Source: a virus (Duplodnaviria > Heunggongvirae > Uroviricota > Caudoviricetes). From it: a stretch of 38,909 nucleotides of DNA. The notes below the pieces were generated by a model. That model was given only the letters and a program-made list of their open reading frames with translations, made no database searches and was not told the origin of the DNA. The position numbers were made by a program, and so were the translations under genes. Below, piece by piece: positions 1,419 through 14,431 of this stretch; position 1 is the stretch's first letter; the number at the start of each line of letters is the position of its first letter. The stretch lies in IMG/VR virus record IMGVR_UViG_2630968766_000008, positions 1 to 38,909 of that record; one strand, written 5' to 3'.

Positions 1419-3860
1419 TTAAAAATCAGCCTGACTCGGGATCAGTTTTTGCCAGATAACTGAAACGTATTTTGCCTGGTAACGAGCGTCATCAAGTGCA
1501 TTATGGCGCTCACCTTCGAATGGGATAGCAGTTCTGGCATCGAAGTCTATGGCTTTCCCCAGCTCAACGATTGTGCGTACATCGCGATCGTTGCAGTAGC
1601 GCCACGGGCAGGGGATACCCTGTCGTTCGTATGAACGGCGTAAAATCACGTTGTCGAAGTTGGCCCCATTACCCCAGACCTGAACAAAAAATTCACCGGA
1701 GTTTTCGTCGATAAATTCCCGCAATTGCAGTAGTGCATCATCTAACGGGATTTCATCGGTCATAATGGCAGACTGCGCTTCACGTGATTGCTTTAGCCAC
1801 CATTTAATGACGTCACGATCAATGACTCCGCCAGCAGTATCCAGATCGATGGTCTTGCTAAATTCCGGTCCCATATCTCCGGTTTGTGGATCGAAAAATA
1901 TTGCGCCTATTGAGATAATCGGGGCATCTGGATTTTTTCCCATGGTTTCAAGGTCGATCATCAGATGAATCCCCGCTCTGCTGGTGGATGTGAGCTTATG
2001 ATGACCATTCACCTTAATTAAGGGATCTGTCGCCTCGCCAGTTTTATTATCGCTGGCGTGATGCTGATTGCCGCCAGGGTTCTCCTTGTGTGGATGTTCA
2101 GCGCCTTCCATTTCCTCCGGATCATTTTCCTGAACTTCAACCTGATTCTCTTCATCGAATGTTTCCTGGTATGTTGCGTCGCCCATCACCGCGCCACAAT
2201 CAGGGCAGTTGCCGCCACCGCTCTGACCGCAGGCGGTGCAGACTTTTTCCGGTTCCTGTTGCGCTACTGGTTCGGATTGTTTCGTTTCTGGCTCGTTTTG
2301 TAACGCATTTGGGCTGTTTTGTTCCGCTTTTTGGTCGTTCCGTTCCGATTCATGCTGGTTCTGGTTCACAGAATCGCGAGTCTGGATCCCCTTGACCCAT
2401 TTCGGATCATTAGGGTCGCTAATCCCCTCAACAAATTCACCACGCGATACAGCAAGTAACTTATCGGCGTCAGGCTGGCTGATATTGGCTGCCTGCATAA
2501 TTTTGTTTACTTCGTCAGCGGTGACTTTTACTTGGTTAGCGGAACTCACCTGCGACTGAGCATCCAGCGACTGCGCGTTCTGGCAATGTTCAGTTGTATC
2601 CGGTTCCATTGTTTCAGTTGTTGCCTGTTCACCTGCCATTGCGTCAGATGGTTGTGGTTTTTCTTCTTCTGTTTCACGCTCAGTAACCACCTCGCGGTTA
2701 ATTTCTTCCAGGATATCTTTTTCCGGCGTATGCCGGGCAGCTGTGAGAGTTTCCTTGCTGGGGTTCTCGTGATCAGTTTCTGTCAAATAGGCGTTGATAT
2801 ACCCCTGAAGGCGTCCCGGGTAGTGATAAAATTCAGGGTGTGCACTTCGGATAAGTGCAAAAATAGCGGCGCGGGAATAGTCCAGAATACCCGGGGTTGC
2901 ACGAAGTGCTGCGGACCATTCTTTGAACGGACTTTCTTTTTTCAGGACTACTTCTTTTGCGCGACGATAAACGCTGCCCGGAATTTCATAAATATTAAAA
3001 TCCATCGGAAGTGTGGCTGCTGCAATCTCCACATCCAGTGTGTCGAGGGTGTGTACTAAATTCGGATTGCGATCGGTTTTGTTCCCACCGCCAGCATTAG
3101 CACCGGAAGCCGTGCGGGTGATGCGTGAAACACGATTTCCTTTCATCCACTCTTTTGTCAGCAGACCCCGATCAGTGTAGTCAGCGTCCAGGTATGCTTC
3201 GAAAAAAGCAGTTATTAGTCCCAGGTCTGAATTACCAGGATTAGGGAAAACTTTGTCAGTGTCACGAACCAGTTTGTGGAGGTCGCGAATCTCCAGCGAG
3301 TCGAGCAGACTGGTTTTATGCGAAATAGCAAGGGCAGTAACAGCCGGTAGTTCTTCAGCCCGTGCAATGTGTAATGCCTGGAGTTCGTCGCGTGAAACGT
3401 GCGTTACTGGTTTTTCGCTGCCGTGTTGAGCAAGCCAACGAATGGGCAGTTCCTGACCGGAGACAGGCAGAAGCATGCTCTCCTCAATCTCAGTCATGTC
3501 TTCGCCGTTGATGTTGGTATTGTCAGTGCTGGCTGGTTTGTCCTGAACAGAGGGGGAAGGGCCGATAAATGTCATTGTGATGCCATCTTTCCCGCCTTTT
3601 TCATAGCGGTTGCAGAATTCAGTATCAAACACGCCTTCTGGCGGAAGGTCGTCAACAACGGGCAAATTGACGCGGACGGGTTTTTTAAAGTCGTCTTCAT
3701 CATAATCGTTGTCATCCATTGCGGTAATGCAGCGGGAGATTGCAACAGATAATTTTTTTGCTGTAGTCCAGTAAAAACCACCTTTAATTCCCAGGCGTTT
3801 TCTTACTTTGTCATTTTTTGCTTCGCAATATAGTGCAAATTCTTCTTTATCAGTGCTCAT
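1419..3860 (-). CDS. Large early-left protein with C-terminal DnaQ-like (DEDDh) 3'-5' exonuclease domain; sits where the ydfE remnant lies in Qin
   Basis: 813-aa ORF. C-terminal ~180 aa carry exonuclease motifs (MIDLETMG, ...WGNGANFD..., H..ALDDARYQAKY). A central CTACG..CPDCG cysteine pair suggests a zinc knuckle. Follows ydfD in the dic operon. Confidence 0.65.
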   Translation of the reverse strand: MSTDKEEFALYCEAKNDKVRKRLGIKGGFYWTTAKKLSVAISRCITAMDDNDYDEDDFKKPVRVNLPVVDDLPPEGVFDTEFCNRYEKGGKDGITMTFIGPSPSVQDKPASTDNTNINGEDMTEIEESMLLPVSGQELPIRWLAQHGSEKPVTHVSRDELQALHIARAEELPAVTALAISHKTSLLDSLEIRDLHKLVRDTDKVFPNPGNSDLGLITAFFEAYLDADYTDRGLLTKEWMKGNRVSRITRTASGANAGGGNKTDRNPNLVHTLDTLDVEIAAATLPMDFNIYEIPGSVYRRAKEVVLKKESPFKEWSAALRATPGILDYSRAAIFALIRSAHPEFYHYPGRLQGYINAYLTETDHENPSKETLTAARHTPEKDILEEINREVVTERETEEEKPQPSDAMAGEQATTETMEPDTTEHCQNAQSLDAQSQVSSANQVKVTADEVNKIMQAANISQPDADKLLAVSRGEFVEGISDPNDPKWVKGIQTRDSVNQNQHESERNDQKAEQNSPNALQNEPETKQSEPVAQQEPEKVCTACGQSGGGNCPDCGAVMGDATYQETFDEENQVEVQENDPEEMEGAEHPHKENPGGNQHHASDNKTGEATDPLIKVNGHHKLTSTSRAGIHLMIDLETMGKNPDAPIISIGAIFFDPQTGDMGPEFSKTIDLDTAGGVIDRDVIKWWLKQSREAQSAIMTDEIPLDDALLQLREFIDENSGEFFVQVWGNGANFDNVILRRSYERQGIPCPWRYCNDRDVRTIVELGKAIDFDARTAIPFEGERHNALDDARYQAKYVSVIWQKLIPSQADF

Positions 3861-3953: not shown

Positions 3954-4145
3954 TTAAAATCCTGCCGGGATTTCGTTATTATCCTGGTGAATAACTTTAT
4001 CGACCGGATAACAGTTGCCTGGAATTTTCTGTTCGGTTGCTGCTGCCATACATTCCTGCATTGTTCTGTGAACACTGACTGCAATATCAACTGGCTCTCC
4101 GGAAACAAGAAAAACCGTCAGAATAAGTGCAAATACTGGATTCAT
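3954..4145 (-). CDS. ydfD: YdfD-like small lysis protein (63 aa) with N-terminal hydrophobic helix
   Basis: 63-aa ORF (MNPVFALILTVFLVSG...) whose ATG overlaps the dicB stop as ATGA, the same arrangement as dicB-ydfD in the E. coli Qin prophage; size matches YdfD from memory. Confidence 0.6.
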   Translation of the reverse strand: MNPVFALILTVFLVSGEPVDIAVSVHRTMQECMAAATEQKIPGNCYPVDKVIHQDNNEIPAGF

Positions 4146-4330
4146 TGTGCACATCCTTTTGGCATCAGACGTAAACGGGCCAGCATTGAAACAATGCATA
4201 CTTTATTTAATAACTCCCGTTCGTGTTTTCTTTTGTTAATGGCATCTTCAGTAAATACAGGATTACTGATAGTGACACCAATTTCAAAACAACCTTCAGA
4301 CGTATTAACGTTTGGTAATAACGTTTTCAT
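4142..4330 (-). CDS. dicB: Cell division inhibitor DicB (MinC-activating)
   Basis: 62-aa ORF MKTLLPNVNTSEGCFEIGVTISNPVFTEDAINKRKHERELLNKVCIVSMLARLRLMPKGCAQ, nearly identical to my recollection of E. coli K-12 DicB; GAGGG Shine-Dalgarno 8 nt upstream; immediately downstream of the dicF sRNA. Confidence 0.8.
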   Translation of the reverse strand: MKTLLPNVNTSEGCFEIGVTISNPVFTEDAINKRKHERELLNKVCIVSMLARLRLMPKGCAQ

Positions 4331-4499
4331 TATCGCGCCCTCAACAATGAGTTTTGTGATGCGGTGCCTGGTGCCTCCAGGTGACGTTAACCAGTTAACA
4401 ATTAACGCCGGATACAGAGAATCCACCCATAACACTGTTTTTGGTTTTAACTGTTCCGCGTGCGCTTAGCCGCATTCACCGCATCACAAAATTCACTTT

Positions 4500-4557
4500 A
4501 AAAAGGGCGGCAGAGCAGTCACGGAGTAAAACTGATACCGCCAAACGTCACCAGAAA
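4500..4557 (-). ncRNA. dicF: DicF small RNA (ftsZ translational inhibitor) including its intrinsic terminator
   Basis: Reverse complement of 4500-4557 reads TTTCTGGTGACGTTTGGCGGTATCAGTTTTACTCCGTGACTGCTCTGCCGCCCTTTTT, which matches the DicF sequence as I recall it, ending in a GC-rich hairpin (GGCGG...CCGCC) plus U-run. Lies between ydfC and dicB as in Qin. Confidence 0.75.
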
Positions 4558-4898
4558 ATTGATAACAGAGGGCGTTGCAGCGGGGTTGTCACTTAAGCGT
4601 ATGGTCAACCTGACAACCCGGTGTCCTCAACGGGGGAAGGAATAACCCCGCCATACTTACCGCCGCGCCATTTCGCGGATTGCCACAACCGGAAGCGCAC
4701 GGTCGACGAAAATTTAACGACAGGCTATCTATGAACCAGCTACCTCGCCGTGCGCTTTCGCGTTATGGTCTGACTTTTCAGGGAAATATCCTTTCAGTAA
4801 ACTGTCAGTGCCGGATGCTCACCCGTGTCCGGCGCACGCACTCCACCTCACCCGTGGAGAACTCCTTAATTACCAACCTTAGCTTCGTTGGTTAGCTA

Positions 4899-5117
4899 TT
4901 AACGCGGGTATGTAATCATTCTGGCAATGCTTAATGCCGCTGCTTTTTCCAGCCTGGTGATATCCTGCTCCAGAGCGGACAGATTTTCAGCCTGCTTAGC
5001 CCTGGCTTCATTGGCCCATTTCAGATCCTGCGCTGCATTAATTTTCTGGCGCATCCACTCATAAAGTTCATCATCGGTATAGTCTGGCGCGATGATGACG
5101 GGTTCTCGTTTCTGCAT
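4899..5117 (-). CDS. ydfC: YdfC-like hypothetical protein (72 aa) of the dicB operon
   Basis: 72-aa ORF with strong AGGAG Shine-Dalgarno 5-6 nt upstream of ATG; size and position (upstream of dicF) match Qin ydfC. Confidence 0.55.
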   Translation of the reverse strand: MQKREPVIIAPDYTDDELYEWMRQKINAAQDLKWANEARAKQAENLSALEQDITRLEKAAALSIARMITYPR

Positions 5118-5188
5118 GTCGGCTCCTTGTGGTTAGCGTTGCCTGCTTTTAACCACGTCAGGCGAGGTGGTATCCTCTGAGGGGTCTG

Positions 5189-5545
5189 TTACTCGAGAGG
5201 AAATTGGTTATGAATACAATCAAGTTTTCTTGCCCAGAATGTGGTGGCGAAGTCTTTGACACATCCTTTAAACCGCAGGGCTCTGACAGTTTCGCGGGAG
5301 CCATCTGCAAAAATTGTGGTCACCTTGTAACTGAAGATGAGTCCTCGCAGTTCGATGACGAAATCGTTGACAATATCTTCGGTGCACTCACCAGAGACTT
5401 TCTGAAATAAAGACGCATACCGCTTAGTTACCGCTCTGATAACTCTTACCTGTCCGGCAATGGCGCTGATGTCAATATAAAGCGCCATTGCTGCTTCTTT
5501 GCCGATCCCGTGATGCCTTCCATTCTGATGTTTGACTTCGCCCAC
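5189..5545 (-). CDS. Hypothetical first gene of the leftward dicB operon (position of Qin ydfA/ydfB); start uncertain (GTG 5545 or ATG 5488)
   Basis: Open frame directly downstream of the leftward promoter; AGAGGA 7 nt before GTG. An antisense zinc-ribbon ORF on + (5210-5410) competes with it, so only one of the two is likely real. Confidence 0.3.
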   Translation of the reverse strand: MGEVKHQNGRHHGIGKEAAMALYIDISAIAGQVRVIRAVTKRYASLFQKVSGECTEDIVNDFVIELRGLIFSYKVTTIFADGSRETVRALRFKGCVKDFATTFWARKLDCIHNQFPLE

Positions 5546-5625
5546 TGAGAAATCCTCTGTTTCCCCTTAACGCCGGGTAGCGGAACTGTTTGCTGAGAAC
5601 ACCGTGCGGTGTCTTGATGGGTGGT

Positions 5626-5654
5626 AATTTAGTTTTCTCATGAATGTTGGTCAA
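5626..5654 (-). promoter_or_regulatory. Leftward early promoter (pL / dicB-operon promoter analogue) with operator repeat in the spacer
   Basis: On minus strand: TTGACC (5654-5649) - 17 nt - TAAATT (5631-5626); spacer contains TGAGAAAACT operator-like motif; a second copy TGAGAAAACTCA at 5665-5676. Confidence 0.5.
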
Positions 5655-5738
5655 GTATTTTTAATGAGAAAACTCAATATTTAATGCAAAATAAAGCCAA
5701 TACATTGAAATGTAAGGCTTTAAAATTTGTGAAGGGGG

Positions 5739-6146
5739 TTACTGATGTTTGTTACGTTTGCGAGCTTCTAGTAGCTCGGTGAATAGGCGATTAAAATTCT
5801 CAACGCGGGCACGGAGTTCGCTGATTTGTGCTTGCTGCTCTGATTTTGGAAGTGCGCGATACAATCGCAACATCTCCAACTCATCTTCCGATAAGTCTAA
5901 GGCGCTGTTGAGTGCAACTGGTGGATCTGGTGTTTTATCCTCGTCACCAAACAGTATCCAAGTTGGTGAACATTGCAATACCTCAGCCAGGCGATGCAAA
6001 TTTTGCCCGCGCGGGGCTGTATGGTCGCTTTCCCATAGTGAAATTGATGAGCCAGATACGCCAGCGGCTTTGCTTAAATCGTTTTGACTTAAACCAACCT
6101 GTTTGCGTCTTTCTCTAATTCGTTGACCTAAAGTTTTCTCGTTCAT
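5739..6146 (-). CDS. dicA: DicA-like repressor (XRE-family HTH, C2/cI analogue)
   Basis: 135-aa ORF; N-terminal HTH (QRIRERRKQVGLSQNDLSKAAGVSGSSISLWE) and conserved VLQCSPTWILFGDEDK segment as in E. coli DicA; divergent from Cro-like dicC. Confidence 0.85.
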   Translation of the reverse strand: MNEKTLGQRIRERRKQVGLSQNDLSKAAGVSGSSISLWESDHTAPRGQNLHRLAEVLQCSPTWILFGDEDKTPDPPVALNSALDLSEDELEMLRLYRALPKSEQQAQISELRARVENFNRLFTELLEARKRNKHQ

Positions 6147-6167
6147 ATTTAGATATCTTAATAACCC

Positions 6168-6209
6168 TTGACTTGAGATTCCTTGAGTGATTACTATTGA
6201 GAAAACTCA
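6168..6209 (+). promoter_or_regulatory. Rightward early promoter (pR analogue) with operator TGAGAAAACTCA
   Basis: TTGACT (6168-6173) - 17 nt - TTACTA/TACTAT, followed by palindromic-ended operator TGAGAAAACTCA at 6198-6209, the same 12-mer found twice left of dicA. Confidence 0.45.
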
Positions 6210-6223
6210 ACTTTGGAGGGGTG

Positions 6224-6451
6224 ATGTTTAAATCAGACGTAATTAATTTTTATGGGACGAAAGCCAAAGTAGCGAAAGCTGCTGGTGTTGATCCATCTGC
6301 TGTTTCTCAATGGGGGGAACTGGTTCCTGAAGGTCGCGCGATGCGCCTGCAAGAGGCATCCGGCGGGGAACTTCAGTACGACCCCAAAGTTTATGACGAA
6401 TATCGTAAGGCAAAGCGGGCGGGGCGGTTGAACAATGAAAATCACCCCTGA
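6224..6451 (+). CDS. dicC: DicC-like Cro-type regulator
   Basis: 75-aa ORF from ATG 6224 (GGAGG Shine-Dalgarno 5 nt upstream); sequence ...VPEGRAMRLQEASGGELQYDPKVYDEYRKAKRAGRL... resembles E. coli DicC; divergent to dicA. Confidence 0.75.
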   Translation: MFKSDVINFYGTKAKVAKAAGVDPSAVSQWGELVPEGRAMRLQEASGGELQYDPKVYDEYRKAKRAGRLNNENHP

Positions 6452-6986
6452 ACAGGTTTGTGAGGCTCTGGATGCCTGGGTATGTCGACCAGGAATGACA
6501 CAGGAGCAGGCGACGATATTAATCACGGAAGCATTCTGGGCTCTGAAAGAACGCCCGAACATCGATGTTCAACGCGTCACGTTTAATGATGGCGAGGTTG
6601 ATCAACGGGCGCTGGGCGTTAACCGGGTGAAGATATTCGAACGCTGGAAAGCTATCGACACCAGGGATAAGCGGGAAAAATTCACGGCGCTGATTCCGGC
6701 AATTATGGAGGCTATCCGGATCAGCGATTTCAGGTTGTATTGTGAAATTACTGACGGAAAAAGCATTACGTACATGATCGCCGGGTTAAACAAAGAATAT
6801 GGCGATGTGGTGGAGTCCGGGCTGCTTTTTGCGGATCCATCTGTTGTGGAACGTGAGACTGACGAGCTTATAGAAAAAGCTATTGCTTTCAAGCATGCGT
6901 ATCGTCAGCAATATCAATATTACTTTGCAGATAAACAAATGTCTGCCAGGGGTTCGTATGAGTATCGATGCACTACGATGGGCTAA
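6435..6986 (+). CDS. Hypothetical protein, possibly YdaT-family (occupies the cII position)
   Basis: 183-aa ORF directly after the Cro-like gene, overlapping it by 17 nt; assignment to the YdaT family is from positional analogy and vague motif memory only. Confidence 0.4.
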   Translation: MKITPEQVCEALDAWVCRPGMTQEQATILITEAFWALKERPNIDVQRVTFNDGEVDQRALGVNRVKIFERWKAIDTRDKREKFTALIPAIMEAIRISDFRLYCEITDGKSITYMIAGLNKEYGDVVESGLLFADPSVVERETDELIEKAIAFKHAYRQQYQYYFADKQMSARGSYEYRCTTMG

Positions 6987-7998
6987 AAAGGTGAAAACCG
7001 GCAGTTCATCCAGTAAGTCTGTATTGACCTGGCTTGCTGATATGTGCGGTGCCGATTTGTGTGCATACCCGTCTGTATCTGCACTGGCAGAAGTAACGGA
7101 ACTGAACAAAAAGACTGTGCAGGACAGCTTACGACACCTGATGGAGATTGGGTTAATTGTTGATACCGGTGAGAGAAAAGGCAGAACAAAGCAAATTGTG
7201 GTGTACCGACTTATCGGTGTAGAAGAAAGTGTTGCCGAGCCTGAATACACCCAAAAACGGGAGTCTTTAAAGGTGGGTAAAATTGGTGCTGTTAATAAAA
7301 ACAGTACCGAAAATGGTTATGTTTCAGCACAAAACAGACCCAAAAACGGAACTCTTAGCTGCATGGAAAATAACCAAAGACACCCAAATTTTCCATCAAA
7401 GACACCCAAAAACGGATCACGGAACCCAAAGGAACCCAAAGATCTAAACCCCACACATAACGCACGCGAGAGTGCTCCGACCAGTGAGCAGGAAGTTTTA
7501 TCGTTACAGGCAGCACCCCTTGTATTCCTGGATGGCCTGAGCGAACCCATCGGAAAATTTCCGATGACCGATAGCTGGTATCCGTCACGGGATTTTCGAC
7601 GACGGGCTGCGTTGTGGGGGATGGCTTTGCCGGAGACAGAATTTACACCTGCTGAACTTGCCGCCTTCCGGGACTACTGGGCAGCGGAGGGGAAAGTGTT
7701 TACGCAGATTCAGTGGGAGCAGAAATTCGCCCGTCACGTAAATCACGTCAGGGCGCAGGTTAAACCAGTCAGCAAGGGGGGGAGCCATGCAGCAGCACCA
7801 GGTGGCACCGCATCACGGGCAGTTCAGGAAATTCGGGCAGCACGTGAGCAGTGGGAACGTGAAAACGGATTTATCAGCGACGGAAACGGCGTGGAAGCTG
7901 TGGGAACTCATGGGGGATGTTTATTCGAACCGCTGGACCCAGAAGAACGGGGTCGCACCTTCGAAGCTCTGGATTGCACAGATTGGCGCGATGACTGA
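6958..7998 (+). CDS. Replication initiation protein (O-like N-terminal wHTH, DnaT-like C-terminal domain)
   Basis: ORF 6883-7998; likely start ATG 6958 (MSIDALRWAKKV...). N-terminus looks like a helix-turn-helix replication protein; C-terminal TDSWYPS...FTPAELAAFRDYW segment resembles the DnaT/primosomal domain fused to phage replication proteins. Confidence 0.6.
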   Translation: MSIDALRWAKKVKTGSSSSKSVLTWLADMCGADLCAYPSVSALAEVTELNKKTVQDSLRHLMEIGLIVDTGERKGRTKQIVVYRLIGVEESVAEPEYTQKRESLKVGKIGAVNKNSTENGYVSAQNRPKNGTLSCMENNQRHPNFPSKTPKNGSRNPKEPKDLNPTHNARESAPTSEQEVLSLQAAPLVFLDGLSEPIGKFPMTDSWYPSRDFRRRAALWGMALPETEFTPAELAAFRDYWAAEGKVFTQIQWEQKFARHVNHVRAQVKPVSKGGSHAAAPGGTASRAVQEIRAAREQWERENGFISDGNGVEAVGTHGGCLFEPLDPEERGRTFEALDCTDWRDD

Positions 7999-8452
7999 GC
8001 AGCAAATCCGACAGGTCTGCCGCCAGTGCATGGACCGCTGCCGGGCGGGTGAAACATGGCCTCCTGACCTGGCTGAGTTTGTGGCGTTGATTTCAGAAAG
8101 TGGAGCCAATCCATTCGGTCTGACGGTAGATGCCGTGATGGAAGAGTACCGCCGCTGGCGCAACGAGTCCTGGCGATACGACGGGAGCGATAAATACCCG
8201 TGGTCTCAGCCTGTGCTGTATCACATTTGCCTCGAGATGCGTTCAAAGGGGATTGAGCGCCAGATGACCGAAGGGGAATTAAAACGGCTTGCAGAACGGC
8301 AGCTGACGAAATGGGCAAAGCATGTTAGTAACGGCCTGAGCGTTCCGCCAGTCCGGCGACAACTGGAGGCACCCAAACGCCCGTCGGGGCCAACGCCAAT
8401 TGAGTTGCTGAAACAGGAATATGAACGCCGGAAAGCGGCTGGGTTTGTTTGA
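7787..8452 (+). CDS. Replication protein P-like (DnaB helicase loader); start uncertain (7787, 7910 or 7991)
   Basis: Segments WPPDLAEFVALI, YPWSQPVLYHICLEMRS, MTEGELKRLAERQL align by eye with lambda P (PSPGQFVAWC..., YPWKSNAHYWLV..., LTDAELRRKAADEL). ATG 7991 overlaps upstream stop as ATGACTGA. Confidence 0.55.
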   Translation: MQQHQVAPHHGQFRKFGQHVSSGNVKTDLSATETAWKLWELMGDVYSNRWTQKNGVAPSKLWIAQIGAMTEQQIRQVCRQCMDRCRAGETWPPDLAEFVALISESGANPFGLTVDAVMEEYRRWRNESWRYDGSDKYPWSQPVLYHICLEMRSKGIERQMTEGELKRLAERQLTKWAKHVSNGLSVPPVRRQLEAPKRPSGPTPIELLKQEYERRKAAGFV

Positions 8453-10551: not shown

Positions 10552-10736
10552 TTATGACCACAATTACCAGAGAACGACTGCTGGAAATGTTTGCGTGAAA
10601 AGGAGAGTTAAGTAAAATCGCCGCGGGTGCTTGAGGCTATCTGCCTCGGGCATGAACACCAACGGCAGATAGAGAAAAGCCCCAGTTAACATTACGCGTC
10701 CGGCAAGACGCTTAACATTAATCTGAGGCTCAATCT

Positions 10737-10949
10737 ATGAACGGCAAATCTAGGTTAGCCTCTTACGTGCCGAAAGGCAAGGAGAAGCAGGCTATGAAGC
10801 AGCAAAAGGCGATGTTAGTCGCCCTGATCGTCATCTGTATTACCGTCATTGTGACGGCACTGGTAACGAGGAAAGACCTCTGCGAGGTACGAATCCGAAC
10901 CGGCCAGACGGAGGTCGCTGTCTTCACAGCTTACGAACCTGAGGAGTAA
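10737..10949 (+). CDS. mok: Mok-like regulatory reading frame (in-frame N-terminal extension of hok)
   Basis: 70-aa ORF sharing stop with hok, as for mokC/hokC in E. coli K-12 (69/50 aa). Confidence 0.5.
   Translation: MNGKSRLASYVPKGKEKQAMKQQKAMLVALIVICITVIVTALVTRKDLCEVRIRTGQTEVAVFTAYEPEE
10794..10949 (+). CDS. hok: Hok/Gef family type I toxin (membrane-depolarising peptide)
   Basis: 51-aa MKQQKAMLVALIVICITVIVTALVTRKDLCEVRIRTGQTEVAVFTAYEPEE, very close to HokC/Gef; AAGGAGAAG Shine-Dalgarno; followed by strong intrinsic terminator. Confidence 0.85.
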   Translation: MKQQKAMLVALIVICITVIVTALVTRKDLCEVRIRTGQTEVAVFTAYEPEE

Positions 10950-11166: not shown

Positions 11167-11430
11167 TTGATGAAAATCGAAGAATTACGTGAAATTTTTA
11201 GTGAAGATGGCCTCTATACTGTGCGCGTTGAGAATGGCGCTATTGTCAGCCACTGCCGTATTAAATGTTTACAGTCTCAACAAAGGAAGAGTGGAGCTGC
11301 GTTAATTCATTTGGTGGATGGGCTTGTGACGGATGGTTTTATTTTGCGTGCAAATGAATTTGTCACATCGTTGCCGTCTCTGAAAGAAGCTGGGATTAAG
11401 GCTGGTTTTTCTGCTTTTGAAGATGAGTGA
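11167..11430 (+). CDS. Hypothetical small protein (Rem-like by position between hok and DUF968 gene)
   Basis: 87-aa ORF; synteny with Qin (hokD-rem-ydfU-quuQ) suggests a Rem counterpart, but sequence identity not verifiable from memory. Confidence 0.4.
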   Translation: MMKIEELREIFSEDGLYTVRVENGAIVSHCRIKCLQSQQRKSGAALIHLVDGLVTDGFILRANEFVTSLPSLKEAGIKAGFSAFEDE

Positions 11431-13590: not shown

Positions 13591-13620
13591 TTGACCAGAC
13601 ACATTGTCCGGGGCTATATT
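13591..13620 (+). promoter_or_regulatory. Late promoter pR' analogue (Q-modified)
   Basis: TTGACC (13591-13596) - 17/18 nt - TATATT (13615-13620) directly downstream of Q. Confidence 0.5.
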
Positions 13621-13682
13621 CCTCACGCGCCAGCAAAATCTGGCGTCGGGATTAGGAACCCCGGATTGAGACCGCGACAGAT

Positions 13683-13706
13683 ACACGCCGCGAGCGTGTT
13701 TTTTAT
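13683..13706 (+). terminator. tR'-like intrinsic terminator of the short late leader RNA
   Basis: ACACGCCGCGAGCGTGT hairpin followed by TTTTTTATT, ~80 nt downstream of the putative pR'. Confidence 0.5.
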
Positions 13707-13867
13707 TGTCGTATGCACGCGCACATCTGAATTATGGTGGGGCGTATGGGGGAGCTGAAAGGCTCGCCGGTTGGTTTCCCGGTAGTTCCTAACCCTGTAC
13801 GTCTCACCACCCGATGATTAGGAACCTGACGGTGGTGATAGTTTAGAAACCACTAGAGGGCGTCATT

Positions 13868-14431
13868 ATGACAACTCAAATCTCTGTTGAAACTCTCTCC
13901 CCGATCACCCATAACCAGATTCCTGTAATTACCACTGAACTTTTGGCGCAGCTTTATGGCACCGAAATTCTGAATATCCAGGTTAACTTCACCAGAAACA
14001 AAGAGCGTTTTGTCGCAGGAAAGCACTTTTTTAAAGCAGCGGGTGAGGAATTAAAAAAATTGCGACTTACTTTAAGTAAGTCACAAAATCCCATCTCTCC
14101 CAAAACCCGCTCCCTCATTCTCTGGACAGAACGAGGCGCAGCCCGTCACGCCAAAATGCTCGAGACCGATCAGGCGTGGGATGTGTTCGAAAAACTGGAA
14201 GACTGTTATTTCAGCCAGAAACAGCCACCAGCAGCACAAAACTCCCCCACCGAAAATGATGGATGCGCATTACTGATCCACTTCGATAAACACGGTCAGG
14301 TCGACTTCACGGAAAAAGTACCCGCCGATGCGATGGTATGCACTCTGGAACGGTTTAAATTTTATCTGGAACAACGCGGCTGGATCGTTGCCCGTAAAGA
14401 GCAGCTGGTGGAACGACTGATGCGGCTTTAA
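13868..14431 (+). CDS. ORF6N/antirepressor-like domain protein
   Basis: 187-aa ORF; N-terminal ~100 aa (ITTELLAQLYGTEILNIQVNFTRNKERFVAGKHFF...ILWTERGAARHAKML) resembles the ORF6N/KilA-N-type DNA-binding domain of phage antirepressors. Confidence 0.5.
   Translation: MTTQISVETLSPITHNQIPVITTELLAQLYGTEILNIQVNFTRNKERFVAGKHFFKAAGEELKKLRLTLSKSQNPISPKTRSLILWTERGAARHAKMLETDQAWDVFEKLEDCYFSQKQPPAAQNSPTENDGCALLIHFDKHGQVDFTEKVPADAMVCTLERFKFYLEQRGWIVARKEQLVERLMRL

Follow-up and report, generated by a model that had tools for sequence, protein, structure and literature searches.

A Qin-type dic locus with a diverged DicA/DicC switch at the immunity position of an apparently intact lambdoid prophage

The 38,909-nucleotide (nt) stretch of tailed-phage DNA analysed here over its full length (IMG/VR record IMGVR_UViG_2630968766_000008, hereafter the window) carries, at positions 3954–6451, a dic locus of the kind known from Qin, a prophage in E. 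coli K-12. We interpret this region, with a probability of roughly 85%, as belonging to a lambdoid prophage of the Qin/mEp460/CP-933 kind, of which it would form the immunity and early-left part, governed by a short DicA-family repressor according to the model set out below. All positions refer to the whole stretch, and the locus was read on both strands. Gene families were called with NCBIfam, Pfam and PHROGs profiles and RNAs by an Rfam scan of the whole window; identity figures refer to the K-12 Qin locus b1569–b1576.

Between the stop codon of ydfD (3954) and that of dicC (6451) the elements follow the order found in Qin: ydfD, dicB, DicF, ydfC, a DicA-family repressor gene and a DicC-family Cro-like gene. 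They are listed here together with the first gene beyond them and with a gene that has no counterpart in the Qin locus.

3954–4145, minus strand: ydfD, 63 amino acids (aa), of the DUF1482 family of lysis proteins, with a start codon that overlaps the stop codon of dicB (ATGA)
4142–4330, minus strand: dicB, 62 aa, cell-division inhibitor (NF049927)
4505–4557, minus strand: DicF small RNA (sRNA), including the 3' stem-loop and U-run terminator (Rfam RF00039)
4558–4898, minus strand: ydfC-dicF spacer, DicF precursor RNA by analogy with K-12
4899–5117, minus strand: ydfC, 72 aa, 71 of 72 (99%) identical to K-12 YdfC
5210–5410, plus strand: ECs_2282-family CxxC zinc-ribbon gene, in place of Qin ydfA/ydfB (NF047912, 57 bits, cut-off 37)
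5739–6146, minus strand: DicA-family repressor gene, 135 aa, Xre-type helix-turn-helix (HTH) protein (NF007257)
6224–6451, plus strand: DicC-family Cro-like regulator gene, 75 aa, divergent from dicA (NF007282)
6435–6986, plus strand: YdaT-family or cII-like gene, the first gene past dicC in the rightward operon, overlapping the end of dicC

The cell-division part of the locus is almost that of Qin. The mature 53-nt K-12 dicF (b1574) is identical at all 53 positions to 4505–4557, including the target-pairing regions and the terminator hairpin with its TTTTT, and the Rfam model RF00039 is matched over its full length (4505–4556 on the minus strand, model positions 1–52 of 52, 76.7 bits with the gathering score at 48, E-value 2.2e-15). 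According to the gene map, DicF lies between ydfC and dicB, inside a polycistron predicted to be driven by dicBp. DicB matches its family over positions 1–62 of 62 (134.3 bits, cut-off 100) and shares 60 of 62 residues (97%) with K-12 DicB, an identity that suggests the same MinC-dependent block of FtsZ rings. YdfD is more diverged, with 56 of 63 residues (89%) identical and 87.9 bits to PF07358 (DUF1482; cut-off 25). At the DNA level, identity to Qin is 98.2% in ydfC, 97.7% in the ydfC-dicF spacer, 97.1% in the dicF-dicB spacer, 96.3% in dicB and 91.7% in ydfD, and similarity ends about 84 nt past ydfD, before the exo gene. The original prediction of a Qin-type dic locus had placed each of these elements where we find them, and its proposal that dicF and dicB would align closely with K-12 is borne out by these figures.

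The regulatory part is related to Qin at a greater distance. The repressor is encoded by an uninterrupted open reading frame (ORF), in agreement with the expectation that this gene would be undisrupted, and matches NF007257 from end to end (238.3 bits, cut-off 101, model positions 1–135 of 135), as the DicC-family protein matches NF007282 (167.6 bits, cut-off 130, model positions 1–75 of 75). Identity to the Qin proteins is nevertheless only 56% for DicA and 71% for DicC. The divergence is concentrated in the HTH-coding parts, with 52% nt identity over dicA codons 1–60 and 63% over the 5' half of dicC, whereas the 3' half of dicC is 90% identical, the non-HTH remainder of the locus is 90–100% identical, and the intergenic regions of the switch cannot be aligned with K-12 Qin. 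Because of the 56% DicA identity, the diverged HTH and the different operators described below, the switch is, judged by sequence, heteroimmune to Qin: it is a member of the DicA family with another operator specificity. The earlier description of the locus as the same module as in Qin therefore fits the leftward ydfC-dicF-dicB-ydfD operon (92–98% nt identity) and does not fit the DicA/DicC switch or the missing ydfA and ydfB.

The candidate promoters and operators of the switch are the following.

5626–5654, minus strand: dicBp-equivalent (PL-like) promoter, TTGACC, 17-nt spacer, TAAATT, from a consensus scan
6168–6197, plus strand: dicCp-equivalent (PR-like) promoter, TTGACT, 18-nt spacer, TACTAT, from a consensus scan
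5628–5641, unstranded: operator-like site over the dicBp -10, reading ATGAGAAAACTAAA on the minus strand, conserved in mEp460_ev081
5664–5677, unstranded: operator-like site just upstream of the dicBp -35, TTGAGTTTTCTCAT, conserved in mEp460_ev081
6197–6210, unstranded: palindromic operator-like site, the perfect palindrome TTGAGTTTTCTCAA, abutting the dicCp -10
5559–5619, minus strand: 5' leader of the leftward operon, with the palindrome ACACCGCACGGTGT at 5599–5612

The operator motif is 14 nt long and of the type TTGAG-N4-CTCAA, with one mismatch at 5664–5677 and two at 5628–5641. Allowing up to two mismatches, it occurs three times in the 38.9 kb, each time at one of the two promoters, where 0.36 matches would be expected; a single shuffle out of 100 reached three matches. 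In the alignment with K-12, where the -35 hexamer of dicBp is conserved, the same three positions are filled by the K-12 palindromes (TGTTAGTCATAACTAACA and variants), which are of a TTAG-N6-CTAA type. Since the operator positions have been kept while both the operators and the HTH-coding parts have diverged, operator sequence and recognition-helix regions must have been exchanged as a set, the normal signature of a lambdoid immunity module, and the repressor would be expected to bind these sites. Another palindrome, TATTTAGATATCTTAATA, is found at 6146–6163 directly upstream of the dicA start codon and is also conserved in mEp460_ev081.

The leader 5559–5619 is nearly invariant in the window, in mEp460_ev081 and in K-12, despite different upstream operators and different downstream genes, and its ACACCGCACGGTGT is a perfect 14-bp palindrome. 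A put- or nut-like RNA element in this leader found no support, as the fold of 5546–5619 does not stand out from shuffled sequences (z = 0.07) and Rfam gave no match.

One of the closest known systems, and the one whose switch agrees with that of the window, is the temperate Escherichia phage mEp460_ev081 (LR597641), described in the literature as a functional phage with dicB, dicF, dicAC and rem (PMC10448788). It has the same layout, int-xis-exo-ydfD-dicB-(dicF)-repressor-dicC-ydaT-like-replication and, further on, hok-rem-Q; the window shares 96% identity with it in the repressor and likewise in the Cro-like protein, and conservation extends to the leader and to all three operators. It differs in that the segment from leader to ydfC continues like K-12 ydfA, without the ECs_2282 segment, and only 70% of the 2.5-kb locus is covered, at 92% identity. 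Qin itself shares the gene order, strands, dicBp -35, 5' leader, operator positions and the downstream hok-rem-ydfU order, and differs in having ydfA/ydfB where the window has the opposite-strand ECs_2282 gene.

The candidate antirepressor gene lies outside the locus.

11167–11430, plus strand: Rem homolog, 71% identical to K-12 Rem (E-value 4e-41) and 72% to Rem of mEp460_ev081

It starts 218 nt past the hok stop codon, in the same hok-rem order as hokD-rem in Qin, and the ydfU-rem-hokD stretch has 83% nt identity to Qin. The hok gene belongs to a hok/sok cassette (Rfam sok, 107 bits over 10625–10799, with a Hok-like ORF inside 10737–10949), and two terminator-like hairpins occur between this cassette and the rem homolog. 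In K-12, Rem relieves DicA repression 165-fold and causes filamentation that depends on DicB/DicF, K-12 DicA lacks features of RecA cleavage, and dicBp switches on spontaneously, in a DicC-dependent manner, in about 1% of cells (PMC10448788, Ragunathan et al.). The repressor in the window is of the same kind: PF01381 (HTH_3, 60.9 bits) is its only Pfam domain, and the Pfam scan found neither an S24 peptidase nor any other second domain. A short repressor without S24 next to a Rem homolog in the same window fits the antirepressor model of that study. As to completeness, everything from ydfD to dicC is present between 3954 and 6451; the rem homolog and the YdaT/cII-like gene, which belong to the system, fall beyond these limits.

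We therefore consider it plausible that the immunity region is functional, as had been predicted, because three operator-motif copies sit at the two promoters, the repressor, Cro-like protein and operators are conserved in mEp460_ev081, a phage described as functional, and a Rem homolog is present. In the model that we favour, a short, non-cleavable DicA-family repressor would bind the three TTGAG-N4-CTCAA-type operators and so keep the dicC- and dicB-type promoters off in the lysogen. Once DicA is displaced, either by a Rem-type antirepressor or because the system changes over, spontaneously or under stress, to the DicC (Cro-like) state, the rightward operon (dicC, the ydaT/cII-like gene and replication genes) would be turned on together with a leftward transcript. 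The latter would cross the leader, pass antisense over the ECs_2282 gene and continue over ydfC, the precursor of DicF, dicB and ydfD. DicB would redirect MinC against FtsZ rings and inhibit ManYZ, and YdfD would be lytic. Processing of DicF by RNase III/E and its repression of ftsZ translation are taken from the K-12 literature, from which we also infer DNA binding, targets and the Rem-DicA interaction.

The arrangement has parallels in other lambdoid systems. Lambda Kil and Rac KilR are small division inhibitors in a repressor-controlled leftward early operon and are expressed on induction. They differ from the dic locus in that there is no sequence relationship, DicB works via MinC/ZipA, and the dic locus adds the DicF sRNA and YdfD. 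The repressors of the Gifsy-type GfoR/GfoA systems are likewise short, of Xre type and without a RecA-cleavage domain, and their repression is lifted by a small antirepressor whose gene lies at another place in the prophage; the Gifsy antirepressors are, however, under LexA control. Such control of rem was considered and rejected, as no CTGT-N8-ACAG occurs upstream of 11167 and the 18 matches in the whole window, against 13.3 expected, are at chance level.

Several points weigh against the interpretation offered here. Leftward transcription could be hindered by the ECs_2282 gene, which lies within the operon on the opposite strand. The K-12 data include no transcript that extends past ydfD, and the window yielded no N-like antiterminator. 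Neither a LexA box nor another obvious signal was found upstream of the rem homolog, and Rem and DicA may not be a cognate pair here, Rem being 71–72% identical to both known Rems and DicA 56% identical to the Rem-responsive DicA. The window, finally, spans the region from the int stop codon (base 1) to just past lom, so that the attachment (att) sites, side tail fibres and right end lie outside it.

A different view would be that DicA/DicC is not the master lysogeny switch and controls only the dicBF operon, lysogeny being governed by an Ant or C4-isrK antirepressor circuit or by another repressor. Rfam matches to c4-a1b1 (13614–13667), isrK (13627–13704) and C4 antisense RNA (13730–13814) do occur, just past Q and directly upstream of a 187-aa anti-repressor ORF (13868–14431, phrog_2379). 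Together these RNAs and the ORF (13614–14431) give the prophage another circuit of antirepressor type. Elsewhere in E. coli, moreover, the dicBF block is found beside unrelated regulators, for example a LexA-family protein or an HTH protein that differs in length. An antirepressor works through a repressor, however, and the circuit would thus complement the proposed model. The dicA/dicC pair lies exactly at the cI/cro position, with the exo arm on one side and the cII-like gene (PF06254, 26.5 bits; phrog_163 'CII-like transcriptional activator', E-value 8e-42) and the replication genes on the other; the rightward promoter, which reads into dicC, the ydaT/cII-like gene and the replication genes, has an operator directly at its -10; and a second repressor/Cro pair was not seen among the early-region ORFs. 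We regard a subordinate role for DicA/DicC as highly improbable.

The functions that the original prediction named as intact neighbours of the locus, int-xis, replication, lysis and morphogenesis, are all encoded by full-length genes within the window. For integration and recombination there are an integrase (372 aa, with Arm-binding and catalytic domains), an ORF at the xis position and an 813-aa exonuclease, and the early and regulatory genes comprise O-like and P-like replication genes, a Ren-like gene, DUF968/HNH, RusA, Q, the anti-repressor and a methyltransferase. Lysis is represented by holin, endolysin and Rz, packaging and head by HNH, TerS, TerL, portal, protease, major capsid and adaptors, and the tail by the major tail protein, chaperone, tape measure, L, K, J and Lom.

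It may still be argued that the prophage is defective, like many CP-933/Sp elements, and that, as in Qin, the dic module is kept only as a permanently repressed, host-domesticated toxic or regulatory cassette. Large O157 prophages bearing dicBF have been described as defective though lambda-sized (PMC5069750), the right end is outside the window, the O-like and P-like ORFs have 212 nt in common, and the closest chromosomal relatives have a frameshifted int or DUF977. Both of the latter are frameshifted in the nearest chromosomal relative (strain EC332) and intact here, where int, the DUF977/Ren-like gene and some 40 further phage ORFs have their full length and match their families from end to end. 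The structural half is 95–97% identical to parts of isolated phages, and the immunity region is that of mEp460_ev081, which has been called functional (PMC10448788). As for the overlap, the O-like ORF (6883–7998) and the longest P-like ORF (7787–8452) are in different frames and phrog_15931 matches both; this is probably no defect, because RefSeq relatives start P at an ATG equivalent to 7991 and are annotated without a frameshift. A defective prophage seems to us unlikely, and the description as apparently intact is supported, not proven, by the gene content. Further observations concern this part of the window. The 813-aa exonuclease (1419–3860) looks like a fusion of an ExoVIII-family N-terminal part (946 bits, below the NCBIfam equivalog cut-off of 1269) with a C-terminal Rv2179c-like 3'-5' exoribonuclease domain (222 bits). 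That the K-12 ydfE pseudogene might be a relic of this gene was considered and set aside, since at DNA level the similarity to Qin ends about 84 nt past ydfD. The window itself does not occur among the complete E. coli genomes, where the best match to the first 25 kb is 97.8% identical over 89%.

Another possibility concerns the purpose of the block more than its regulation: it might serve mainly the lysogen, low-level or stationary-phase DicF and DicB providing superinfection exclusion (by blocking ManYZ) and metabolic regulation, as a moron-like fitness cassette in the PL operon. In K-12, DicF builds up in stationary phase while DicA repression is in place, and about 1% of cells switch dicBp on spontaneously (PMC10448788). 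DicB protects against phages that use ManYZ (PMC6832061; model in PMC10448788), and 4757 of 5426 genomes have kept the block, frequently with several copies each. The position right behind a repressed PL-type promoter predicts, on the other hand, maximal expression on induction, as for lambda Kil, and the sequence holds nothing that would separate a lysogenic from a lytic role. A main role in the lysogen is compatible with the repressor model; we consider it possible and somewhat doubtful.

A departure from Qin inside the leftward operon is the ECs_2282 gene. Segment 5125–5551 is unrelated to K-12 ydfA/ydfB (35% column identity), both of which are absent, and the ECs_2282 variant occurs in 937 of 5426 complete E. 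coli genomes, O157:H7 EDL933 among them. On the minus strand, an ORF of 118 aa (99 aa from the ATG at 5488) at 5189–5545 (phrog_21318) fully overlaps the plus-strand gene and occupies the place of ydfA, and PHROGs families exist for both strands. In RefSeq the plus-strand gene is annotated in most genomes and the minus-strand ORF in a strain whose plus-strand allele has a premature stop. Among seven alleles with 11 substitutions in the overlap, seven substitutions are third-position synonymous in the plus frame against three synonymous in the minus frame, an excess with a binomial estimate of p ~0.04; this is a weak codon-position test only, since all phage and E. coli copies are at least 95.8% identical and there are no diverged copies. 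A 13-bp hairpin with a T-rich tail (5455–5493) follows 45 nt past the stop of the plus-strand gene and is present on that strand only. The plus-strand gene is thus the better-supported reading at 5189–5545 and, if it is real, the leftward transcript would have to cross it antisense. One might imagine the gene as a brake that damps leaky dicF/dicB/ydfD transcription in lysogens by convergent transcription or antisense pairing, with the leader and its palindrome at 5599–5612 as a further control site, one that heteroimmune phages have in common and that does not depend on immunity type; we think this quite unlikely.

The arrangement as a whole is common. Some part of the 2.5-kb locus was found in 4757 of the 5426 complete E. 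coli genomes, at a median of two places per genome, and at least 80% of it in 112 E. coli genomes (best match 99.4%). That many strains have dicBF in multiple prophages has been published (Balasubramanian et al. 2016, PMC5069750). Matching phage records number 62, including vB_EcoS-813R8, vB_EcoS-640R1, Evi, HannyBb, PPompW prophages and Tritos, the record of which already has DicF annotated; vB_EcoS-813R8 and vB_EcoS-640R1 are 99% identical over 3954–5586. The 254-kb record of Aeromonas phage AP1 (MT713136.1, 249906–250152) contains 247 nt with 98.4% identity to 4321–4567, an odd match for that host which may reflect contamination or a chimeric assembly.

The O157:H7 CP-933/Sp prophages and the isolated phages vB_EcoS-813R8, vB_EcoS-640R1 and Evi have the same ECs_2282 variant of the leftward operon, with a 427-nt segment that is 97–99% identical. 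They differ in their immunity regions, with for example RelE/ParE-family or LexA-family genes beside the operon. The ydfC/ECs_2282 segment likewise has varying neighbours in E. coli M19, 13E0725, AR202.2, 1428_w1, EDL933 and RM9131: the DicA variant seen here, a different HTH protein, a protein of the LexA family or a RelE/ParE toxin gene. Since one and the same dicBF block can adjoin different regulators, we conclude that the cassette recombines freely with immunity regions, a case of modular exchange.

The literature already covers this kind of element, how it is regulated and its presence in a functional temperate phage, and beyond correct annotation the importance of this example is small. 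Many database entries are almost the same in sequence, and for each of its parts there is a characterised relative at high identity. The window can be seen as an undamaged relative of Qin and indicates what Qin has lost: the replication, packaging, head and tail genes and an intact int and exo, the K-12 element having lost its replication and morphogenesis genes and carrying an IS2 in ydfE/intQ, where the modules are intact here. It is also an instance of the dicBF cassette being shuffled between immunity types, with an immunity region as in mEp460_ev081, an operon variant as in the O157 prophages and a dicF-dicB core as in Qin. Such an element would be usable as a natural system for studying DicA/Rem control, or the role of DicB and DicF in a real phage induction, an idea that the literature already contains.

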